A stretch of 64,000 nucleotides of DNA. Origin: Alphaproteobacteria bacterium (GTDB lineage Bacteria; Pseudomonadota; Alphaproteobacteria; RF32; CAG-239). The notes under the pieces were generated by a model, which had not been told where the DNA came from, searched no databases, and was given only the letters and a program-made list of their open reading frames with translations. The stretch lies in contig JAGAJR010000017.1 in the NCBI GenBank assembly GCA_017626035.1, forward strand, positions 4,900-68,899. The letters run 5' to 3'. Made by a program: the position numbers and the translations under genes. Positions 5,731 to 14,508 of the stretch are shown in pieces; position 1 is the first letter of the stretch, and the number at the start of each line of letters is the position of its first letter.

Positions 5731-6864
5731 ATGCAGAAATGGGTAAAGAAAAATAATAAATCGGCTAAGCCGGCAGTGCTGAAAAACGAAGATAAAATTC
5801 AGCGTAACTATGCCGCCATTGATTTAGGGACGAACTCCTGCCGTCTGGTTATCGCATCGCCGACACCGGCCTCGTTTCGCATTGTTGAAACCTTTTCCCG
5901 TATTACCAGACTGGGAGAGGGGATTATTCAGGATAACGAACTTTCGCGTCCGGCCATTAAGAGAACCGTTGCGGCTTTAAAAGTTTGTGCCGGGGTGTTG
6001 GATGAATATGCCCCGATTTACCGTTCCCGTTTTGTGGCAACGGCCGCTTGCCGCAGAGCCAAAAACAGTGCGGAATTTTTTGAGGTGGTAAAGCGGGAGA
6101 CCGGATTAAATTTGGAAGTTATTTCTTCGAAGGAAGAATCACGTTTGGCTGTGGTCGGCTGTGTTCCTTTGCTGAACAGAAACATTAAACGGACACTGGT
6201 GTTTGATATCGGCGGCGGTTCTACGGAAATTTCTCTGGCCAGAATTACCAACAGCGGAAAAACTTTTATTGAAGGTTTTGTATCATTGCCTTATGGGGTG
6301 GTTACGATTTCGGAAGCGTTTCCGGCCAAAGATATGACCACTTTGGCGTATAACACGATTATTGAACGGACGCATAAGCTTCTGAAAGATTTTGATGAGA
6401 AATACGGCATTTATGAGGCAATAAAAAATCAGGAAATTCAGATTATCGGAACTTCGGGAACGGTTACCGTTTTGGGGGCGGTGCATTTGAATTTGCCGCG
6501 TTATAACCGTTCGGCGGTTGACGGTATCGCCATTACCAAGCAGGATATTGACCGGGCAATTGCCAAAATCAAACGGTTGGGCGACGAAGGACGCAAGAAA
6601 CATCCGTGTATCGGAGCTCAGAAAGCCGATTTGACCATGGCGGGATGTGCCATTATTGAGGCTCTGTGTTCTTTTTGGCCGATTGCCGAAATTACGGTTG
6701 CCGACCGGGGCATTCGCGAGGGAATTTTACTGGATATGATGCATAGCAAGCCAAACCAACCGTATTCTCCGCATAAAAAGAAAAAATTTCATCATCCGTA
6801 TCATCGTGATAACCGTTTTAAACCTGCGGATAAAAACAGGAGCAAGAATAATAATGACAAATGA
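5731..6864 (+). CDS. Ppx/GppA family phosphatase (short form, with basic C-terminal tail)
   Basis: AAIDLGTNSCRLVIA and DIGGGSTE motifs of Ppx/GppA. Confidence 0.8.
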   Translation: MQKWVKKNNKSAKPAVLKNEDKIQRNYAAIDLGTNSCRLVIASPTPASFRIVETFSRITRLGEGIIQDNELSRPAIKRTVAALKVCAGVLDEYAPIYRSRFVATAACRRAKNSAEFFEVVKRETGLNLEVISSKEESRLAVVGCVPLLNRNIKRTLVFDIGGGSTEISLARITNSGKTFIEGFVSLPYGVVTISEAFPAKDMTTLAYNTIIERTHKLLKDFDEKYGIYEAIKNQEIQIIGTSGTVTVLGAVHLNLPRYNRSAVDGIAITKQDIDRAIAKIKRLGDEGRKKHPCIGAQKADLTMAGCAIIEALCSFWPIAEITVADRGIREGILLDMMHSKPNQPYSPHKKKKFHHPYHRDNRFKPADKNRSKNNNDK

Positions 6865-7801
6865 ATGTTATGCCGCTATTGATTTGGGAACGAATTCCTG
6901 CCGTCTGGTTATTGCCGACAATAAAGGAAATTATCTTTATAAAGATACCGTGGCAACCCGGTTAGGCGAGGGAATGTATGCTCAAATGAAGTTTACGGAC
7001 GAGGCTGTTGACAGGGGCATAAAGTGCTTTTGTGATTATAAGCGGGAAATGGACAAGTATGGGGTTTCCAAATATCGGGCAATTGCCACGGCTTCCTGCC
7101 GGATGGCGTCCAATGGTTTGGATTTTGTTCGTCAGGTTAAGGAAAAGACAGGAATTGAGATTGAGGTTATTGACGGTTTGGAAGAAGCTCGGCTGAATCT
7201 CAAGGGAGCTTTGCAGAATGTGAAAGGAAAATCCGAGTATGTCGTTGTTTATGATTTGGGCGGCGGTTCTACGGAAATTACGTTGGCAACCAATGAATCC
7301 GACCCAAAAATCATTTACAGTGTTTCTATTCCCTGGGGAGCAAGAAATTCCAGTGAAGCTTTTGACTTGGTGGAATATTCCGATGAACGGGCTGAAAAAT
7401 TGAGGAATGAAATTGCCGGATATGTTCGGGAGTTTGTTGAGAAATCACATCTGAAGGATTATGAAGGCAAGGTGTGTTTTGTGGCAACGTCCAGCACTCC
7501 GTTGCGTTTGATAAGCAAAATATATGCTTTCGGGGAGTTTGACCGGGAAAAGGCCGATGGATGCAAAGCTTCCCGCAAGCAGTTTGACGAAACAATTGCG
7601 TCCATATACAAAATGAGCCGTGTTCAAATGGCCGAAGATGTTTATATCGGCGAAAAAAGGTCGTTTATTTTTGTTCCGGCCTGTGTCATTTTTAAGACAA
7701 TTTATGACGGATTAGGCGTGGAGGAGTTAACCGCCTCGTTAAAGAGTGCCAAAGACGGAATTATTGAAGAATTGGTGGAGAAATATGGCAAAACTGACTA
7801 A
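6854..7801 (+). CDS. Ppx/GppA family phosphatase, tandem paralog
   Basis: YAAIDLGTNSCRLVIAD and DLGGGSTEI; AGGAG RBS before the ATG at 6854; 11-nt overlap with the upstream paralog. Confidence 0.8.
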   Translation: MTNECYAAIDLGTNSCRLVIADNKGNYLYKDTVATRLGEGMYAQMKFTDEAVDRGIKCFCDYKREMDKYGVSKYRAIATASCRMASNGLDFVRQVKEKTGIEIEVIDGLEEARLNLKGALQNVKGKSEYVVVYDLGGGSTEITLATNESDPKIIYSVSIPWGARNSSEAFDLVEYSDERAEKLRNEIAGYVREFVEKSHLKDYEGKVCFVATSSTPLRLISKIYAFGEFDREKADGCKASRKQFDETIASIYKMSRVQMAEDVYIGEKRSFIFVPACVIFKTIYDGLGVEELTASLKSAKDGIIEELVEKYGKTD

Positions 7802-8495
7802 ATCGGCAAAAGAGGTTCGCGGCCGCCATATGTTGACGGTGCGGGTCAAAACTTCCAAATATCGGGACAAGTCTTCCAATCGTTGGCTGGAAAGACAATT
7901 GAATGATCCGTATGTAGCGGAATCCAAACGTTTGGGGTATCGTTCCCGGGCGGCATTCAAACTGATTCAGCTGGATGAAAAATATAAGTTTTTGGGCAAA
8001 GGAAAGACTATTGTCGATTTGGGATGTGCTCCGGGAGGCTGGACACAGGTTGCCGTCCAACGAAACAAAGGAACCGGACAGGTAGTGGGAATTGATATTT
8101 TGGAAACGCAGCCGGTGTCCGGGGCGACAATGATTTGTCAGGATTTTACGGAAGCGGATGCGGCGGATAAATTGAAGGCATTGCTTGACGGAAAAGCGGA
8201 TATTGTGATGAGCGATATGGCTGCCAATACGACGGGACATCAGCAGACGGATCATTTGCGGACTATCGGTTTGGTAGAGTTGGCATACGAATTTGCAAAG
8301 GAAGTTTTGGCTGACGGCGGAATTTTTATTGCCAAAGTTTTTCAGGGCGGAGCGGAAGGTTCGCTTCTTGCCGATGTGAAGAAAAATTTTAAGAAAGTAT
8401 CGCATTGCAAGCCGGACGCAAGCCGTCAGGGATCGCCGGAAACTTATTTGGTGGCAATGGGGTATAAAGGTTCTGACGGAAAAGAACAGGGATAA
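7785..8495 (+). CDS. rlmE: 23S rRNA (uridine-2'-O)-methyltransferase RlmE/FtsJ
   Basis: RSRAAFKLIQLDEKY, VVDLGCAPGGWTQV SAM-binding motif. Confidence 0.85.
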   Translation: MAKLTKSAKEVRGRHMLTVRVKTSKYRDKSSNRWLERQLNDPYVAESKRLGYRSRAAFKLIQLDEKYKFLGKGKTIVDLGCAPGGWTQVAVQRNKGTGQVVGIDILETQPVSGATMICQDFTEADAADKLKALLDGKADIVMSDMAANTTGHQQTDHLRTIGLVELAYEFAKEVLADGGIFIAKVFQGGAEGSLLADVKKNFKKVSHCKPDASRQGSPETYLVAMGYKGSDGKEQG

Positions 8496-8498
8496 TTT

Positions 8499-9884
8499 AT
8501 GCTTAACAAACATCTTGCTGAGAGAGTTTTATTAAAAGCCTTGTCAACCGGTGGGGATTTTGCCGAACTTTATGCCGAAAATTCCCGGATGACATACTTG
8601 TCCATGGGCGACAATAAAATTGACGGAGCGTCCTCCAATCTGCGTTGCGGAGTAGGTATCCGGGTTTTCAAAGATGTGTTTTACAGTTATGCGTATACCA
8701 ATGATCTTAGCGAGGCAGGCTTATTGAAAACAGCGGAAAAAGCGGCTGCCGCAGTTTCTGGGAACGAATTAATCAAAAACATTAACTTGACTGGTTATCC
8801 TTTTGAAAATAATCACAAAACATTAATAAATCCAGAAAGCGTAAAAGCCGGAGAAAAGGTGGAAATTTTACGTCGGGCTTCTGCGGCGGCTTATCGGGAA
8901 AGTTCAAAAATCCGCCGAGTGGATGCCGGGTTAAGTGATAAAATTCAGAATGTGTTAATTGCCAATTCGGACGGATTGTGGGTTGAAGACACAAGAATCC
9001 GCACGCATTTTAATGTATCTGCCATGGCTGAAGACGGAGAAGAAAAATTTTCTTTGGGAAAAGGTTTGGGTGGTTTGCAAGGGTTTGAATTTTTTCAGAC
9101 CGTTAATGCGGAAGAAACAGCCCGTTTTTGTGCCAAAAGTGCCGTGGAAATGCTTACTGCGGAAAATTGTCCGGCCGGAAGAATGCCGGTGGTGGTAGCT
9201 CGTGAAATCGGCGGAATTTTGTTTCATGAAGCTTGCGGACATTCTTTGGAAGCAACATTGCTGGCAAAAAATGCTTCCGTTTTTAACGGCAAACTCGGAC
9301 AGCAGATTGCCAGTCCGTTGGTAACGCTGGTGGATGACGGGACACTGCCGAACTTGTGGGGTTCTTCCAATGTGGATGATGAAGGAAATAAGACCCGGCG
9401 GAATGTTTTGATAGAAAAAGGCGTTTTGAAGGGATATCTGATTGATCGGTTTAACGCTCGGAAAATGGGAATGGATGCAACCGGCAGTTCGCGGCGTGAA
9501 TCTTATAAAATCGCTCCGACTTCCCGAATGAATAATACTTATCTTCTGGCCGGAAACAGCAAACCGGAAGAGATTATCGCCAATACGGAAAGAGGCGTTT
9601 ATGTAACGATGTTCGGCAACGGTTCGGTTAATCCGACATCGGATGATTTCAATTTTCAGGTGAAACAGGCTTATTTGATTGAAGACGGGAAACTTACCAA
9701 ACCGGTCAAAGGGGCAAAACTTATCGGAAAAGGGGCGGATATTCTGCCAAAAATTGATATGGTCGGGGATGATTTGGGCATCCATGGCGGAGGGCATTGT
9801 GGTTCGGTTTCCGGTTATGTTCCGGTTTGCCACGGGCAGCCGACGCTCAGAGTGGCCGAAATGATTGTCGGAGGGCAAAAATAA
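8499..9884 (+). CDS. tldD: metalloprotease TldD
   Basis: HEACGHSLE zinc-binding motif; TldD/PmbA family length and composition. Confidence 0.9.
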   Translation: MLNKHLAERVLLKALSTGGDFAELYAENSRMTYLSMGDNKIDGASSNLRCGVGIRVFKDVFYSYAYTNDLSEAGLLKTAEKAAAAVSGNELIKNINLTGYPFENNHKTLINPESVKAGEKVEILRRASAAAYRESSKIRRVDAGLSDKIQNVLIANSDGLWVEDTRIRTHFNVSAMAEDGEEKFSLGKGLGGLQGFEFFQTVNAEETARFCAKSAVEMLTAENCPAGRMPVVVAREIGGILFHEACGHSLEATLLAKNASVFNGKLGQQIASPLVTLVDDGTLPNLWGSSNVDDEGNKTRRNVLIEKGVLKGYLIDRFNARKMGMDATGSSRRESYKIAPTSRMNNTYLLAGNSKPEEIIANTERGVYVTMFGNGSVNPTSDDFNFQVKQAYLIEDGKLTKPVKGAKLIGKGADILPKIDMVGDDLGIHGGGHCGSVSGYVPVCHGQPTLRVAEMIVGGQK

Positions 9885-11212
9885 TGAACATTGAAGCTTT
9901 CATCGACAGATTGTTTGAATATGCCGAAGCCAGAGGGCTGAAAGAGTATCAGGTTTCTTATGCAAAAAATGAAAACAGTGATATTCAGGTTTTTAATCAG
10001 GAAATTTTCAAACAGAGCGACAATACGCTGATGGTCTTGAGTTTTGCCGTTCGGGTCAATGGTAAAATAGGACGTTTTACGACAGAGAGATTTGACATTG
10101 AAGATGTTAAAAGGGTTGTTGACGAAGCGGTTGCCAACGCTGAGATTATGGAATGTGATGAAGAGTTTTTCTTTTATGACGGAGCAGGAAACTATCCGAT
10201 GGTGGTTAAACATCGGCCGCAAGTTGAACGATTGGAAAAGTTTGATAAAATTGCTTTTCTCAAACGGTTGGAAAAAGAGACTTATGTTGCGGACAAAAGG
10301 GTTAACAAAGTAATTTCCACTCAGTATTACAGTTCTTTAAGCCAAGCGATTATGAGAAACTCACTAGGTTTAAATCTGAAAGACGAAACTATCAGGGCGG
10401 GAGCTTATGTTTACGCTTCGGCTCAAAACGGTTCGGAAGTGAAAACATACGGCGACGGCGTTTGCTTTGACAAGGAAGAAGATTTTAATTCCAAACGGTT
10501 GGCCGAAAAGGTGGTAAAAAAGCTGGTGTCCCGTTTGGGTGCGGAAAACACGTTTTCCCGCAAAGCTCCGGTTGTTTTTGAAAATAAAGTTTTTGCCTCG
10601 ATTTTGGGGAGTATATACGGTATGTTTTCAAGTTATGCCGTGGATACGGGAAAATCAAAGCTGGCCGGAAAAATCGGCGAATTAATCGCTTCCCCGAAAG
10701 TGTCGATTATTGACAATCCATGGCTTGAAAACGGCTTTGCAACTTCGGCGTTTGACAGTGAGGGTGTGCCGACACGGTATAAAGAATTGGTTAAAGACGG
10801 TGTGCTGCAAGGGTTCTTATATGGTTTGAGCATGGCACACAAGCATCATACGCAATCTACCGGAAACGGTACCGGAGGGTTAGGCAGCCGTGTGTTTAAT
10901 TTTTATTTGAAAAACGGGACTTGTCCGCGTGAGGAATTGCTGCGTAAGCTCGGCGACGGTGTTTATATTGACAAGTTGAACGGGTTGAGCGGCAGTATCA
11001 GTCTGGTTTCCGGAAATTTTTCAATGGGTGCGGAAGGTTATCGGGTGACAGACGGAAAATTAGGGGCGTACTTGAATCAGTTTACCATTTCAGGAAATAT
11101 TTATGATGTGCTTAAAGATATTGAAGAAATCGGGGATGATTTGGATTTTGACTGTTCGCCTTTGGGTTCTCCCTCTGTTTTGGTAAAAAATATAACTGTC
11201 GCCAATAATTAG
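9884..11212 (+). CDS. pmbA: metalloprotease PmbA/TldE
   Basis: TldE-like sequence; TAATG start/stop overlap with tldD. Confidence 0.85.
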   Translation: MNIEAFIDRLFEYAEARGLKEYQVSYAKNENSDIQVFNQEIFKQSDNTLMVLSFAVRVNGKIGRFTTERFDIEDVKRVVDEAVANAEIMECDEEFFFYDGAGNYPMVVKHRPQVERLEKFDKIAFLKRLEKETYVADKRVNKVISTQYYSSLSQAIMRNSLGLNLKDETIRAGAYVYASAQNGSEVKTYGDGVCFDKEEDFNSKRLAEKVVKKLVSRLGAENTFSRKAPVVFENKVFASILGSIYGMFSSYAVDTGKSKLAGKIGELIASPKVSIIDNPWLENGFATSAFDSEGVPTRYKELVKDGVLQGFLYGLSMAHKHHTQSTGNGTGGLGSRVFNFYLKNGTCPREELLRKLGDGVYIDKLNGLSGSISLVSGNFSMGAEGYRVTDGKLGAYLNQFTISGNIYDVLKDIEEIGDDLDFDCSPLGSPSVLVKNITVANN

Positions 11213-11896
11213 TTGACAAATTTGTCTAAAAAAGATATTTTAGTTGTAATTCTATTAAGCATTATCACTAAATTTATCTATAAGCCTATGTTTAAAACAG
11301 CCACTGAGATTCAGGTGAATGACAGTATCCTGGCTCAAAAGAAAAAGATTTGTTACAAAGATGTTCTTGCCGTGGTAACGGAAACCTTAAGGGAGCGAAA
11401 ATTTTACATTCAAAACGTTTCGTTGGTTTGGTTAAGGTTTTCGCAAGAGGTTGAGCCGTTTGTCCATTGCAGAAGTCCGCGAACAGACGGGTTCCATGCC
11501 GGTTATTTTCTGGATTTGCGTCCTTATGAAGGGAACGTGATATTCGGATTTTATCAGCCGTTTTCCGGAAAAGTTTATATCATAGAGAGCAAGTGTCTCT
11601 GCGATGCGGAAGCGGTTGTCGGCAATTTGCAGTTTCCGCTGGCTTTTCGAAAAACGCAGACAAGACGGACGTCGAACGAGTATTTTGACGTTAAACGGTT
11701 GTCCCGGTGCTTCAAAGTTGGTCGGAAATGTTTCTCCTTCAATTATGTGCTGACGGCATGTGAAGACAGGGAAGTTGTGAAAACCGTGGTTTCCACGCCT
11801 TCGTCTTTGGCGGAAGACGCCTTTTATGAAGAAGAGATTCTTACGGACATACAGCGTAACAGCCCGATGTTTTTTAATAAATTTTATCAAATTTGA
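11213..11896 (+). CDS. hypothetical protein with N-terminal membrane anchor, Cys-rich
   Basis: ORF begins (TTG) directly after the pmbA stop; hydrophobic N-terminus ILVVILLSIITKFIY; no recognizable family. Confidence 0.45.
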   Translation: MTNLSKKDILVVILLSIITKFIYKPMFKTATEIQVNDSILAQKKKICYKDVLAVVTETLRERKFYIQNVSLVWLRFSQEVEPFVHCRSPRTDGFHAGYFLDLRPYEGNVIFGFYQPFSGKVYIIESKCLCDAEAVVGNLQFPLAFRKTQTRRTSNEYFDVKRLSRCFKVGRKCFSFNYVLTACEDREVVKTVVSTPSSLAEDAFYEEEILTDIQRNSPMFFNKFYQI

Positions 11897-11899
11897 GTT

Positions 11900-12301
11900 A
11901 TGTTTCTAGAAATTTTCCGTGACAGCATCGCTGTCAATTGGAAGTCTCTCAAGGGAAAGACTTTCATTACCGAGGATGATTTGGCCGAGGCCATTGCTTC
12001 TTGGTTGCTAATCGAGAAAAAGTATGTCTTCGTTCAGTTCGAAGGCTTGTATGAAACGAAAGCAAACCATGATGAAATCAACCTGTTGGTTGACAAGGTT
12101 TATCATACTTTGTGGCAGATTTCCGGAGAGTATTATCTGCTGTGCGTTTCAGAGAAAGGACCTTCTCTGGTGCACGCGGATATTTACCAAGGGGCGGTCG
12201 ACAGGGACAAGATGTGTTTGCAGCCCGGTATCTATAATTTGGTTGAAATGGACAAGCTCCCTTATAAGGGACGTCTCTATCTGAAAAATGAGATAATCTG
12301 A
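11900..12301 (+). CDS. hypothetical protein (133 aa)
   Basis: Begins 4 nt after the preceding ORF on the same strand; no recognizable family. Confidence 0.45.
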   Translation: MFLEIFRDSIAVNWKSLKGKTFITEDDLAEAIASWLLIEKKYVFVQFEGLYETKANHDEINLLVDKVYHTLWQISGEYYLLCVSEKGPSLVHADIYQGAVDRDKMCLQPGIYNLVEMDKLPYKGRLYLKNEII

Positions 12302-12409
12302 TTTTTCCAAATTGGGATAAAGAGACAAAAAACCTTGAAAGCGTTGTTGCTTTTGAGGTTTTTTGTTTATATAGTAAATGAAAATTATGACAACAAGGGA
12401 TTTTTCATT

Positions 12410-13621
12410 ATGCAGAAAGCCGCTCAATATCAGGCTGTGTTGGAACTTCTGGCGGAGATTTTCAAAGACAAGTTTCCGGCGGACAATATTATTAACGCTT
12501 ATATGCGTGAGAGGAAATACATCGGCTCGAAAGACCGGCGTTTTGTGACGGAAACCGTGTGGAAAATTATTCGCAACCGCAGAAAACTGACATTTGACGC
12601 GGGAAGCGACGATGTCCGCAAGATATTGATGACATATTTGCAGGATGAAGATTTGGATTTGATTTTCGGCAACGGGGAGTATGCTCCGGCAGCGTTAAGC
12701 AAAGAAGAAAAAAACTGGCTGAAGCATAAAAACGAAGAGGTTTATCCGGCGGATGTGGAAGCTGAATGTCCGAAGTGGCTGTTTGAAAAAATTAAGGATA
12801 TGGCTTTGCTTAAGTCTTTGAATGAGCCGGCGACTGCGGATTTGCGGATTAATGCCGGGTGCCGGGGCGATGTGATAGACAAGCTTAGAGGAGAGGGATT
12901 ATTTTTTGCTCCGACGGTTTATTCTCCAATCGGCATCCGTTCTACGGAGAGGGTAAACCTTAACAACTGCATTGCATATAAAGAGGGATTGATTGAGGTT
13001 CAGGACGAAGCTTCCCAGCTGGCGGCTGTTCTGAGTGATGTGAAACCTGAGCATAAAGTTATTGATTATTGCTGCGGGGCCGGCGGTAAAACGCTGACGA
13101 TTTCTTTTTTGATGCAAGGGAAAGGTAAAATCTATATTCACGATATCAACAAAAATCGTTTGGAAGCAATTAAAGAACGGGCGGAACGGCTGAATGTCAA
13201 AAATATAGAAACGGTTTCCGGAGTGAGAGATGATGATTATTATGACCGTTTTATTGTCGATGCTCCCTGTTCGGGAACGGGAACCTGGCGGAGAAGTCCG
13301 GATGCAAAGTTTCGGTTGACTCCGGAAAAACTGCGGGAATTAAATCAGGCTCAGGCGGAAATCCTTGAAACAGCTTATGCCCATACGAAATCCGGGGGTA
13401 GAATCGTTTATATCACCTGTTCAATTCTCCGAGAAGAAAATGAAGAAATTATTGAAGCTTTTAAGTCGCGTCATCGGGATATGAAACATTTTAATTTGAA
13501 AAATTTATGGCAGTCTAAGCTGGATGCCCCTTATCCGTGCGTGAATGAAAATTATCTGCGTTTTTCTCCTTTAACAACGGGGACGGACGGCTTTTTCTTT
13601 ACGGTTTTGGTTAAGGAATAA
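12410..13621 (+). CDS. rsmB: 16S rRNA m5C methyltransferase, RsmB/Sun (NOL1/NOP2) family
   Basis: IDYCCGAGGKT SAM motif, DAPCSGTGTWRR and ITCS catalytic motifs; start chosen at MQKAAQYQ. Confidence 0.8.
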   Translation: MQKAAQYQAVLELLAEIFKDKFPADNIINAYMRERKYIGSKDRRFVTETVWKIIRNRRKLTFDAGSDDVRKILMTYLQDEDLDLIFGNGEYAPAALSKEEKNWLKHKNEEVYPADVEAECPKWLFEKIKDMALLKSLNEPATADLRINAGCRGDVIDKLRGEGLFFAPTVYSPIGIRSTERVNLNNCIAYKEGLIEVQDEASQLAAVLSDVKPEHKVIDYCCGAGGKTLTISFLMQGKGKIYIHDINKNRLEAIKERAERLNVKNIETVSGVRDDDYYDRFIVDAPCSGTGTWRRSPDAKFRLTPEKLRELNQAQAEILETAYAHTKSGGRIVYITCSILREENEEIIEAFKSRHRDMKHFNLKNLWQSKLDAPYPCVNENYLRFSPLTTGTDGFFFTVLVKE

Positions 13622-13627
13622 TTTTGC

Positions 13628-13954
13628 TTACGGCTTGGGTGGAAGCTGTTTGTTGTTTATCTGGTAAATGTAAGAGATGATTTCGGCAACGGCGGAAAAG
13701 GCTTCAACCGGAATTTCGCTGTCAATGTCAACAGCTTTTAATATTTGCACCAAGTCGGCGTCCTGATGAATTTCTATTCCTTCATCCAAGGCTATTTGGA
13801 TGATTTTTTCGGCAATCTGCCCTTGTCCTTTGGCTAACACTTTCGGGGCGTTGTTTTTGAGCGGGTCGTAGCCCAGAGCAACGGCATAATCTGGGGACAA
13901 ACTGCTATCTTGATTGTTTTTATCGTGTTTTCTGTTATTATCCTGTTCAGACAT
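13628..13954 (-). CDS. FlhB C-terminal domain-like protein (EscU/YscU/FlhB export-switch domain only)
   Basis: AVALGYDP...APKVLAKGQGQIAEKIIQIALDEGIEIHQDADLVQIL matches the cytoplasmic FlhB C-domain; no TM region; start chosen at the internal ATG with GGAG RBS. Confidence 0.7.
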   Translation of the reverse strand: MSEQDNNRKHDKNNQDSSLSPDYAVALGYDPLKNNAPKVLAKGQGQIAEKIIQIALDEGIEIHQDADLVQILKAVDIDSEIPVEAFSAVAEIISYIYQINNKQLPPKP

Positions 13955-14027
13955 TATGGAGTTGCTCCTGTGTTTAAAACCTAAAATATTGTAATGTTTG
14001 ATTAATTTAATTGCAACAGGTTTTATT

Positions 14028-14043
14028 TGGCACAGGTTTTGCA
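14028..14043 (+). promoter_or_regulatory. sigma-54 (RpoN) -24/-12 promoter TGGCAC-N5-TTGCA upstream of flgB
   Basis: Exact TGGCACaggttTTGCA with the GG and GC elements 12 nt apart, about 50 nt upstream of the flgB ATG and its AGGGGAGG RBS. Confidence 0.7.
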
Positions 14044-14094
14044 TAATGTTTGTTATGTTGGGGAACATAACTGAACAGGGGAGGTTTTACAACG

Positions 14095-14508
14095 ATGGAT
14101 TTAAATAATCTTTCGGTTTTTAATATGGCAAATGTCAATATGAAGTATCTGACCGAGCGTCAGAAGGTTTTGGCGTCTAATGTTGCCAATGCAAATACTC
14201 CTGGATATTTGGCCAAAGATATTGAAAAACCTTCATTTTCTCAGTTTATGGAAAAAATCCCGCTCCGTCTTAACGTTACCAATGAAAAACATTTTGCTTT
14301 GCTTCCGTCTCAGATGGCGGCAGAAAAGAGCAACGGGGTTTATACGCCGAAGCCGACGGCGGCTTTGACGATTGACGGTAACGGCGTGATACTTGAAGAT
14401 CAGTTGAACGAAGTCAGCAAAACCAAAAGCGAATATAACCGTATGCTTACCATTTACGGAAAATATAAAGATTTGCTTTCGGTTGCCAACACAAAGATTA
14501 ATGCTTAG
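14095..14508 (+). CDS. flgB: flagellar basal-body rod protein FlgB
   Basis: LASNVANANTPGY rod-protein N-terminal motif. Confidence 0.9.
   Translation: MDLNNLSVFNMANVNMKYLTERQKVLASNVANANTPGYLAKDIEKPSFSQFMEKIPLRLNVTNEKHFALLPSQMAAEKSNGVYTPKPTAALTIDGNGVILEDQLNEVSKTKSEYNRMLTIYGKYKDLLSVANTKINA

Follow-up and report, generated by a model that had tools for sequence, protein, structure and literature searches.

An orphan two-gene cassette between tldD-pmbA and rsmB in uncultured gut Alphaproteobacteria

The DNA analysed here, a window of 64,000 nucleotides from an alphaproteobacterial contig (GenBank accession number JAGAJR010000017.1), carries two uncharacterised genes, designated ORF3 and ORF4, directly downstream of the TldD/E protease genes tldD and pmbA. 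We put at about even the chance that the pair is a lineage-specific two-gene transcription unit lying between a ppx-ppx-rlmE-tldD-pmbA operon and rsmB, with an adjacency that was inherited. Its location beside tldD-pmbA is best explained as inherited synteny and not as membership of the protease system. Roughly 60% of bacteria possess TldD/E, whose housekeeping or physiological role is still open (PMC5810440); a protein retained specifically at its side would be a valuable lead. The evidence to date does not make this locus such a lead, and the pair has the look of an ordinary orphan cassette peculiar to its lineage. The analysis corrected the start of ORF3, whose product is not a membrane protein, defined two new small protein families in uncultured gut Alphaproteobacteria, and delineated a clean predicted unit of promoter, two genes and terminator that is directly testable.

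The tldD-pmbA gene pair

8499..9884, + strand: tldD, 461 aa, catalytic subunit of the M103 TldD/E metalloprotease, HEACGH motif
9884..11212, + strand: pmbA (tldE), 442 aa, non-catalytic partner, start overlapping the tldD stop (TAATG)

The protease genes are an ordinary pair for TldD/TldE (PmbA) loci of family M103, adjoining and overlapping, with HExxxH in TldD only and three Pfam domains credited to each gene. The junction agrees with the TAATG overlap of the original prediction, the tldD stop TAA (9882-9884) and the pmbA ATG (9884-9886) having one base in common. The tldD product matched Pfam PmbA_TldD_1st, 2nd and 3rd with E-values from 2.9e-15 to 2.2e-69 (56.6, 64.8 and 233.4 bits against gathering cut-offs of about 21-22), and scored 349 bits against NCBIfam TldD, an E. 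coli-type equivalog model with a cut-off of 513; on these scores the predicted protein is a member of the family and not an equivalog. The metal site of TldD consists of HExxxH and a C-terminal Cys ligand, C454 in E. coli (PMC5810440), and the window protein has both HEACGH and, in its C-terminal stretch GHCGSVSGYVPVCHGQPTL, a Cys that is a candidate metal ligand. For PmbA the second and third Pfam domains were above cut-off and the first below it (16.7 vs 20.9), and HExxxH is absent from the translation, as in PmbA/TldE proteins. The window differs from known TldD/TldE loci in the unrelated two-gene cassette, with its own predicted promoter, that follows pmbA, and neither a RiPP precursor nor RiPP modification enzymes are encoded around this cassette. 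No dedicated TldD/E partner protein is named in PMC5810440 or PMC10885120.

Start codon and product of ORF3

11213..11287, + strand: non-coding leader between pmbA and ORF3, 75 nt
11288..11896, + strand: ORF3, 202 aa, soluble, orphan family ('b-type'), ATG start set by homologues

This gene had been read as a 227-aa frame starting at a TTG and carrying an N-terminal membrane anchor. The frame from TTG 11213, the base following the pmbA TAG, is indeed open to TGA 11896, but the TTG start did not hold: the homologues start at the residue matching M26, which is ATG 11288, and in three related loci (L001, L003 and L009) a stop after 14 codons closes the TTG frame, which is open in the window because of a 1-nt insertion only. 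Recorded gene calls for ORF3 are 193 aa (NCBI MBO5442990.1, from a GTG at 11315), 202 aa and 224 aa, and none gives 227 aa. At the ribosome binding site, whose inspection had been suggested as a check, a clear Shine-Dalgarno sequence, found at about 56% of window genes, is lacking for both ORF3 and ORF4; it is the relatives that contradict the TTG start.

With the relatives starting at ATG 11288 and their TTG frame closed by a stop, the supposed anchor of 25 residues is the translated leader. Over 19 residues the best Kyte-Doolittle score falls from 1.98 in the 227-aa form to 0.92 in the 202-aa form, the hydrophobic segment of the longer form being confined to its leader part, and the 202-aa protein has no translated hydrophobic segment of transmembrane length. 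The proposed membrane tether of TldD/E falls with the anchor. The count of seven Cys in ORF3 was correct.

The ORF3 family is marked by the motifs VNDSxL, SPRxD..H, YQPFSGK, VQFxL, SRC[FY]K and EDR. Its invariant polar residues, among them D12, H70, Y89, Q90, S93, K95, S139-R140-C141 and E159-D160-R161, suggest that the protein has an active site or binds a ligand or metal. The AF2 model of ORF3 was poor (pLDDT 42) because it predates the deeper alignment of 26 ORF3 sequences, and no catalytic fold was recognised in it.

Predicted promoter, terminator and transcription unit

11213..11241, + strand: predicted sigma-70-type promoter, -35 TTGACA (11213-11218), 17-nt spacer, -10 TATTTT (11236-11241)
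11215-11226, + strand: palindrome GACAAATTTGTC, overlapping the -35 box and spacer, candidate operator
11900..12301, + strand: ORF4, 133 aa, soluble, acidic, second orphan family, 3 nt past the ORF3 stop
12326..12365, + strand: predicted intrinsic terminator of the cassette, 17-bp hairpin with A-tract, stem and U6 tract
12347..12375, + strand: candidate rsmB promoter, TTGCTT, 17 nt, TATAGT, inside the 3' arm of the hairpin
12410..13621, + strand: rsmB, 16S rRNA m5C methyltransferase family (Pfam Methyltr_RsmB-F, 7e-42), next transcription unit

The predicted cassette promoter is the best promoter-like site between 7.5 and 13 kb, with 10 of 12 consensus matches, and both it and the terminator were assigned by consensus and comparison. 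Each of the ten lineages inspected has TTGACA after the pmbA stop, and nine of them have the complete palindrome; the exact sequence TTGACAAWTTTGTC occurs once per locus, at the same place each time, in 13 loci, and once in the window. The leader holds a second inverted repeat, AGTGATnAT..ATTATCACT, which is degenerate in the window and a perfect 9 bp in L008. An Rfam scan of 7000-14500, including leader and hairpin, gave no match, and an RNA element in either was discarded as a candidate, the leader hairpin being weak in the window (only -3.1 kcal/mol).

The hairpin after ORF4 has a minimum free energy of -25.3 kcal/mol (z-score -9) and is unique in the window. Across ten lineages 98% of its cells are paired and five pairs show compensatory changes, the observed score being attained in none of 500 shuffles. 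TTGCTT (alignment columns 22-27) is invariant in these ten lineages and is followed in most by a TATAGT-like box, the spacing having been read from the sequences of the window and L028; the site is thus a candidate promoter of rsmB. The start of rsmB is ATG 12410 and not TTG 12335, the relatives having been called as 402-403 aa from MQKA.

With a predicted promoter upstream, a hairpin after ORF4 and a separate candidate rsmB promoter, ORF3 and ORF4 appear to form their own two-gene unit. From ppx2 through rlmE and tldD to pmbA the genes overlap or leave gaps of 3 nt, and a spacer is found at the pmbA-ORF3 junction only. Translational coupling of pmbA to ORF3, as originally proposed, is contradicted by this conserved 75-nt spacer with a predicted promoter in it, tight coupling being limited to ORF3-ORF4. 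As for co-transcription of all four genes, the cassette has its own predicted promoter and terminator, yet no terminator was found between pmbA and ORF3, so that read-through from tldD-pmbA into the cassette is possible.

Database searches and coding evidence

The original description of the second gene, a soluble 133-aa protein closely following ORF3 (11900-12301, three bases past its stop), was borne out, as was the statement that neither protein belongs to a known family: no match was obtained in Pfam, NCBIfam, PADLOC, PHROGs or PDB sequences, no known solved fold was matched, and Foldseek returned nothing. The small alpha+beta adaptor folds of the DUF1795/Eag (SciW, PA0094) and Mog1/PsbP-like types scored near noise; they share no sequence similarity with the cassette proteins, whose locus has no type VI secretion context. 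The ORF3 family comprised 14 cluster representatives among 1.84 billion and the ORF4 family 12 clusters. Two large proteins matched by the ORF3 profile (P0019 and P0023) were repeat proteins of low complexity that lacked a valid domain stretch, and were set aside as noise. A mobile or phage origin was likewise rejected, with no relatives of either ORF found on viral contigs, no PHROGs match and no compositional anomaly.

In the window lineage the ancestral four-Cys motif of ORF4, CWIG..C..C..C, has been cut to C106. Assignment of ORF4 as a PD-(D/E)xK nuclease was dropped, the HincII match being weak (E 0.4) and the candidate D65 and K86 not conserved. Nor did profile comparison uphold ORF4 as a truncated paralogue of the N-terminal domain in ORF3 (hhalign E 0.1-0.27, probability <1%, three runs). 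The two share a similar order of secondary structure, and each hhalign run gave the same collinear N-terminal alignment.

That the two ORFs are chance frames or decaying pseudogenes is highly improbable. Such a view could draw on the lack of a known domain and of a clear Shine-Dalgarno sequence, on the truncated and absent alleles described below, and on the loss of three of the four ancestral ORF4 Cys, but dN/dS was 0.14-0.29 for both ORFs (0.14-0.21 for ORF3) at dS 0.3-1.6 in several independent pairs, against 0.02-0.2 for the flanking genes, and both families keep their full length and invariant motifs at identities as low as 22-30%. By these measures ORF3 and ORF4 are real, uncharacterised protein-coding genes under purifying selection.

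Distribution and turnover of the cassette

The cassette was found in one clade of gut Alphaproteobacteria only, always in the slot between pmbA and rsmB. In every relative with a readable upstream flank ORF3/ORF4 or their paralogues lie directly 3' of tldD-pmbA, so that absence or lack of linkage in all relatives, named beforehand as grounds for abandoning the association, was not observed; a PmbA query of the genome collection returned only three close loci. About 10 kb are syntenic across the clade (ppx-ppx-rlmE-tldD-pmbA-slot-rsmB-flhB'-flgBC-fliE), and because this whole block is shared, adjacency to the protease genes can equally well be put down to descent and is no argument for a link.

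The slot content varies, whereas tldD and pmbA are intact in every locus covering them. ORF3 is absent from L008, which keeps ORF4; it is truncated to 129 aa in L009, L010 and L012, with its C-terminal motif half deleted and ORF4 kept in L009. ORF4 is absent from L016 and L021-L032, where two ORF3 paralogues in tandem occupy the slot. The pairs are closely spaced throughout, as ORF3+ORF4 (gaps of 2-12 nt), 217+215 aa (5-nt gap) or 214+199 aa (ATGA overlap). One paralogue, the 'a-type', lacks YQPFSGK, SRCF, EDR and SPRxD..H, and the b-type keeps all four. In the human-gut lineage the paralogues have N-terminal extensions of about 12-25 residues before the conserved block. As each gene occurs without the other (L008, L016, L028), ORF3 and ORF4 are not obligate partners. 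Comparison of the window with L009 disclosed a 1.45-kb island of divergence (69-89% identity, ORF3 dS 1.1) within flanks 96-100% identical, which implies allele exchange.

Proposed function of the cassette and alternatives

In the inherited two-gene unit that we favour, the predicted promoter, beginning at the base that follows the pmbA stop, would drive ORF3-ORF4, and the hairpin after ORF4 would end the transcript; a repressor on the GACAAATTTGTC palindrome probably controls expression. The products may act together as a cytoplasmic complex, with ORF3 as the conserved motif-bearing component and the second slot occupied by an exchangeable and putatively non-catalytic partner, either ORF4 or, elsewhere, the degenerate a-type paralogue. 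The tandem paralogues of L016 and L021-L032, one motif-bearing and one not, recall active/degenerate pairs such as TldD/TldE, an analogy of organisation only, with no homology to TldD/E.

Dedicated partnership with TldD/E, in which a role of ORF3 and/or ORF4 as substrate, inhibitor or adaptor would be the reason for their adjacency, is rather unlikely. It would account for the position of the family directly after pmbA at every readable locus, down to 52% PmbA identity, and is favoured by the missing terminator ahead of the cassette, by the open role of the protease, and by the extensions of the human-gut paralogues, which could thread into it. However, the synteny takes in the unrelated ppx, rlmE, rsmB and flgBC, so the linkage is not specific; the cassette has its own conserved predicted promoter, loss, truncation or exchange of the slot genes has left tldD and pmbA intact, and the membrane tether is refuted. 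For cleavage, moreover, TldD/E needs an unfolded peptide or an unfolded N-terminal tail 15 or more residues long, and full-length CcdA proved stable with it in vitro (PMC5810440), whereas fewer than 10 residues precede the conserved or structured parts of window ORF3 and ORF4 (about 9 in front of the first conserved block of ORF3), which argues mildly against a substrate role.

A toxin-antitoxin-like or conflict module, with b-type ORF3 as effector, ORF4 or the a-type as neutraliser and autoregulation via the palindrome, is unlikely. Like type II operons such as ccdAB, the cassette is a small, tightly coupled pair (3-nt gap) with a conserved palindrome over the -35 box of its predicted promoter, has a fast-evolving and replaceable partner, and includes inactivated or truncated alleles. 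Such a module would also fit the faster evolution of the pair than of the neighbour genes, the allele exchange implied by the comparison with L009, and the decay pattern (ORF3 halved in L009 or removed in L008, ORF4 kept). Unlike them, it matched no toxin, antitoxin or defence model in Pfam, NCBIfam, PADLOC or PHROGs and no such structure, neither protein has a detectable DNA-binding domain, either gene is found without the other, and the locus is fixed and vertically inherited in the clade, not sporadic or mobile, with none on viral contigs. Charge complementarity of the pair (pI 8.6 and 5.2 in the window) is not conserved in relatives and was rejected as a sign of pairing. The conserved position is equally near rsmB, rlmE and the flagellar genes, and the proteins could as accessory factors serve rRNA methylation (rlmE, rsmB), polyphosphate/(p)ppGpp metabolism (two ppx/gppA genes) or flagellar assembly (flhB-like, flgB, flgC, fliE); this is quite improbable, since the predicted terminator divides the cassette from rsmB, resemblances were under the reliable level with low-confidence models, and nothing specific points to any of these links. 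Finally, a fragment of the CcdA antitoxin is a TldD/E substrate, and the cassette might, as a chromosomal analogue of CcdA/CcdB, pair a b-type ORF3 effector with an exchangeable partner (ORF4 or the a-type) that TldD/E turns over. This combination is very unlikely, but if true the turnover of the partner would be the first dedicated physiological client of TldD/E.

The slot between pmbA and rsmB

Two genes, here designated ORF3 and ORF4 and together termed the cassette, occupy the slot between pmbA and rsmB. The features of this region are listed below.

8499-9884, tldD, PmbA_TldD domains, HExxxH motif as HEACGH
9884-11212, pmbA, PmbA_TldD domains, TAG stop ending at 11212
start of the 75-nt pmbA-ORF3 spacer, predicted sigma-70-like promoter, TTGACA, 17 nt, TATTTT
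pmbA-ORF3 spacer, palindrome TTGACAAATTTGTC, candidate operator overlapping TTGACA
11288-11896, ORF3, 202 aa from ATG
11900-12301, ORF4, 133 aa as first described, frame starting three bases past the ORF3 stop
12326-12365, predicted terminator hairpin, 17 bp, with A-tract, stem and U6
12347-12375, candidate rsmB promoter, TTGCTT in the hairpin 3' arm and TATAGT 17 nt on
12410, ATG start of rsmB

The genes tldD and pmbA share the A of a TAATG overlap, in agreement with the original prediction, and HExxxH is found in TldD only, not in PmbA. The ppx2/rlmE, rlmE/tldD and tldD/pmbA junctions are overlapping or 3 nt apart, whereas pmbA and ORF3, which had been proposed to be translationally coupled, are separated by a 75-nt spacer with a conserved predicted promoter. 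TTGACA-17-TATTTT ranked first among the sigma-70-like sites of the 7.5-13 kb region. All ten lineages inspected have TTGACA past the pmbA stop, at 13-16 nt in those with only 52-68% PmbA identity; it lay within the palindrome GACAA(A/T)TTTGTC in nine, and a TAnnnT-type box was present 17 nt beyond it in about eight. The exact palindrome motif occurred once per locus, always at the spacer, and once in the 64-kb window. Directly past the -10 box lies a second inverted repeat, which matches perfectly over 9 bp in the related locus L008 and is degenerate in the window. Given these conserved signals and the tight upstream junctions, the pmbA-ORF3 junction is predicted to be a promoter and not a translational coupling site. 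No terminator was found ahead of the spacer promoter, so that read-through from pmbA into ORF3 may also occur.

Directly upstream of rlmE are two tandem Ppx/GppA-family paralogues (5731-6864 and 6854-7801, overlapping by ~10 nt), a pair kept in all relatives. RlmE (7746-8495) is unusually strongly conserved relative to its operon neighbours, with 85-99% identity across lineages where TldD has 59-75% and PmbA 52-68%.

The hairpin downstream of ORF4 has a folding energy of -25.3 kcal/mol (z-score -9). In the ten-lineage alignment 98% of cells are paired and five pairs have changed on both sides, a covariation value reached in 0 of 500 shuffles. TTGCTT in its 3' arm is invariant and TATAGT at 17 nt was read in the window and in locus L028, making a plausible rsmB promoter. 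Thus, the cassette is bounded by its own predicted promoter and terminator. In all lineages a single stretch of 50 nt appears to serve both to end transcription of the cassette and to start that of rsmB. In two distant relatives the same hairpin element precedes a DUF1653 gene inserted before rsmB (L013, 4172-4375; L017, 9115-9321).

ORF3 and ORF4 products

The frame from the TTG directly after the pmbA stop is indeed open, from 11213 to 11896, but the 227-aa protein predicted from it was not borne out, since the alignment places the first residue of ORF3 homologues (196-199 aa) at M26, namely ATG 11288. In loci L001 and L003 a 1-nt difference brings the TTG frame to a TAA stop after 14 codons, and the frame is closed at the same point in L009, a locus with flanks 96-100% identical to those of the window. 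Public gene calls for the exact ORF3 sequence give 193 (NCBI MBO5442990.1), 202 and 224 aa, and none gives 227. The hydrophobic stretch ILVVILLSIIT, earlier taken for an N-terminal membrane anchor, is confined to the 25 extra residues and would be a translated AT-rich leader upstream of the ATG; leaving them out lowers the best 19-residue hydropathy score from 1.98 to 0.92. Taken together, these data point to a soluble 202-aa protein.

A profile search found 14 ORF3 relatives among 1.84 billion representatives, ~10 of them full-length (194-211 aa, 22-40% identity), with the common motifs VNDSxL, SPRxD..H, YQPFSGK, VQFxL, SRC[FY]K and EDR. ORF4 gave 12 clusters in 5.8 billion sequences. Values of dN/dS, taken from several pairs with dS 0.3-1.6, were 0.14-0.21 for ORF3 and 0.16-0.29 for ORF4, compared with 0.02-0.2 for flanking genes. 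By these measures both are real genes, but of very narrowly distributed orphan families. As originally stated, neither matched Pfam, NCBIfam, PADLOC, PHROGs or PDB sequences, searched as single sequences and family by family. Homology between ORF3 and ORF4 was considered and is not detectable.

Most ORF4 relatives contain a four-Cys motif, CWIG-x(3-5)-C-x3-C-x6-C (residues 95-113 in the window ORF4), which may bind a metal. Of the four Cys, C106 alone is kept in the window lineage; two of the three replacements are C to Y, at positions where the alignment is clear. The predicted model of ORF4 is of modest quality (pLDDT 65, pTM 0.63) and displays a single helix lying against an antiparallel sheet, while that of ORF3, built from three sequences only, is poor (pLDDT 42). 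Foldseek returned no match. No fold assignment is justified.

Turnover of the slot in relatives

The loci compared belong to Alphaproteobacteria MAGs ('Alphaproteobacteria bacterium', 'uncultured Azospirillum sp.') or metagenome contigs, several of the latter labelled human gut. Every locus with enough flank had the same block: rnhB, DNA methyltransferase, ppx, ppx, rlmE, tldD, pmbA, slot, (DUF1653), rsmB, flhB-like, flgB, flgC, fliE. Members of the ORF3 and ORF4 families adjoin pmbA in every locus with readable flanks, which upholds the linkage first proposed, and tldD and pmbA are intact wherever covered. The slot contents are as follows.

ORF3 and ORF4: window, L001, L003, L013, L017
leader and ORF4, no ORF3: L008
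ORF3 reduced to 129 aa by a ~190-nt deletion, and ORF4: L009, L010, L012
two tandem ORF3 paralogues, no ORF4: L016, L021-L032

The tandem paralogues are 214 and 199 aa with an ATGA overlap, or 217 and 215 aa with a 5-nt gap; the invariant polar motifs are gone from the upstream copy and kept in the downstream one, which is of the window's type.

The flhB-like gene (window 13628-14068, minus strand, opposite to rsmB) lies between rsmB and flgB-flgC-fliE, and its small product resembles the FlhB C-terminal domain; the gene is kept in all relatives, where Bac_export_2 (Pfam) is found. In L017 it is separated from rsmB by a 622-aa flagellin (12078-13946) and three small unknown ORFs.

Comparison of the window with L009 disclosed a 1.45-kb island (~11250-12700; 7540-8800 in L009, including the ~190-nt deletion) of 69-89% identity, flanked by 96-100% on both sides, which takes in both cassette genes and the terminator as well as ~300 nt at the 5' end of rsmB. 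Here dS was 1.1 for ORF3 and 0.30 for ORF4, against 0.04-0.10 in the flanks, a synonymous divergence 3-10 times that of the neighbours. This rise in dS suggests that a diverged ORF3-ORF4-rsmB 5' allele was imported by recombination between close strains, and not relaxed constraint alone.

Significance of the cassette

The original proposal was that ORF3 and ORF4 are candidates for a substrate, inhibitor or membrane tether of the TldD/E (TldD/PmbA) protease. The constant proximity of the family to pmbA speaks for such a partnership, but synteny is clade-wide, the cassette has its own predicted promoter and the slot turns over beside an unchanged protease. Published biochemistry weakens it further: TldD/E acts on unfolded peptides only, at least 15 free N-terminal residues are needed, and full-length CcdA was stable in vitro (PMC5810440; PMC10885120). 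Of that proposal, two real, uncharacterised genes linked to pmbA stand, while coupling to pmbA and membrane binding do not. The promoter palindrome, fast evolution, allele exchange and decay patterns would also fit a toxin-antitoxin-like system, although no homology backs this and a locus fixed in position and inherited vertically is at odds with it. On the best-supported reading, the two genes of the cassette form an independent, lineage-specific unit and both their products are soluble. Within such a unit the ORF3 and ORF4 products probably work together, and the motif-bearing ORF3 type may be the constant member, the second gene being exchangeable.

Last, every 2-kb bin of the window has a positive GC skew (0.02-0.25) and the plus strand carries nearly all long ORFs, which fits a leading-strand segment far from the origin or terminus switch. 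The window has four tRNA genes, at 614, 15351, 27093 and 51868.
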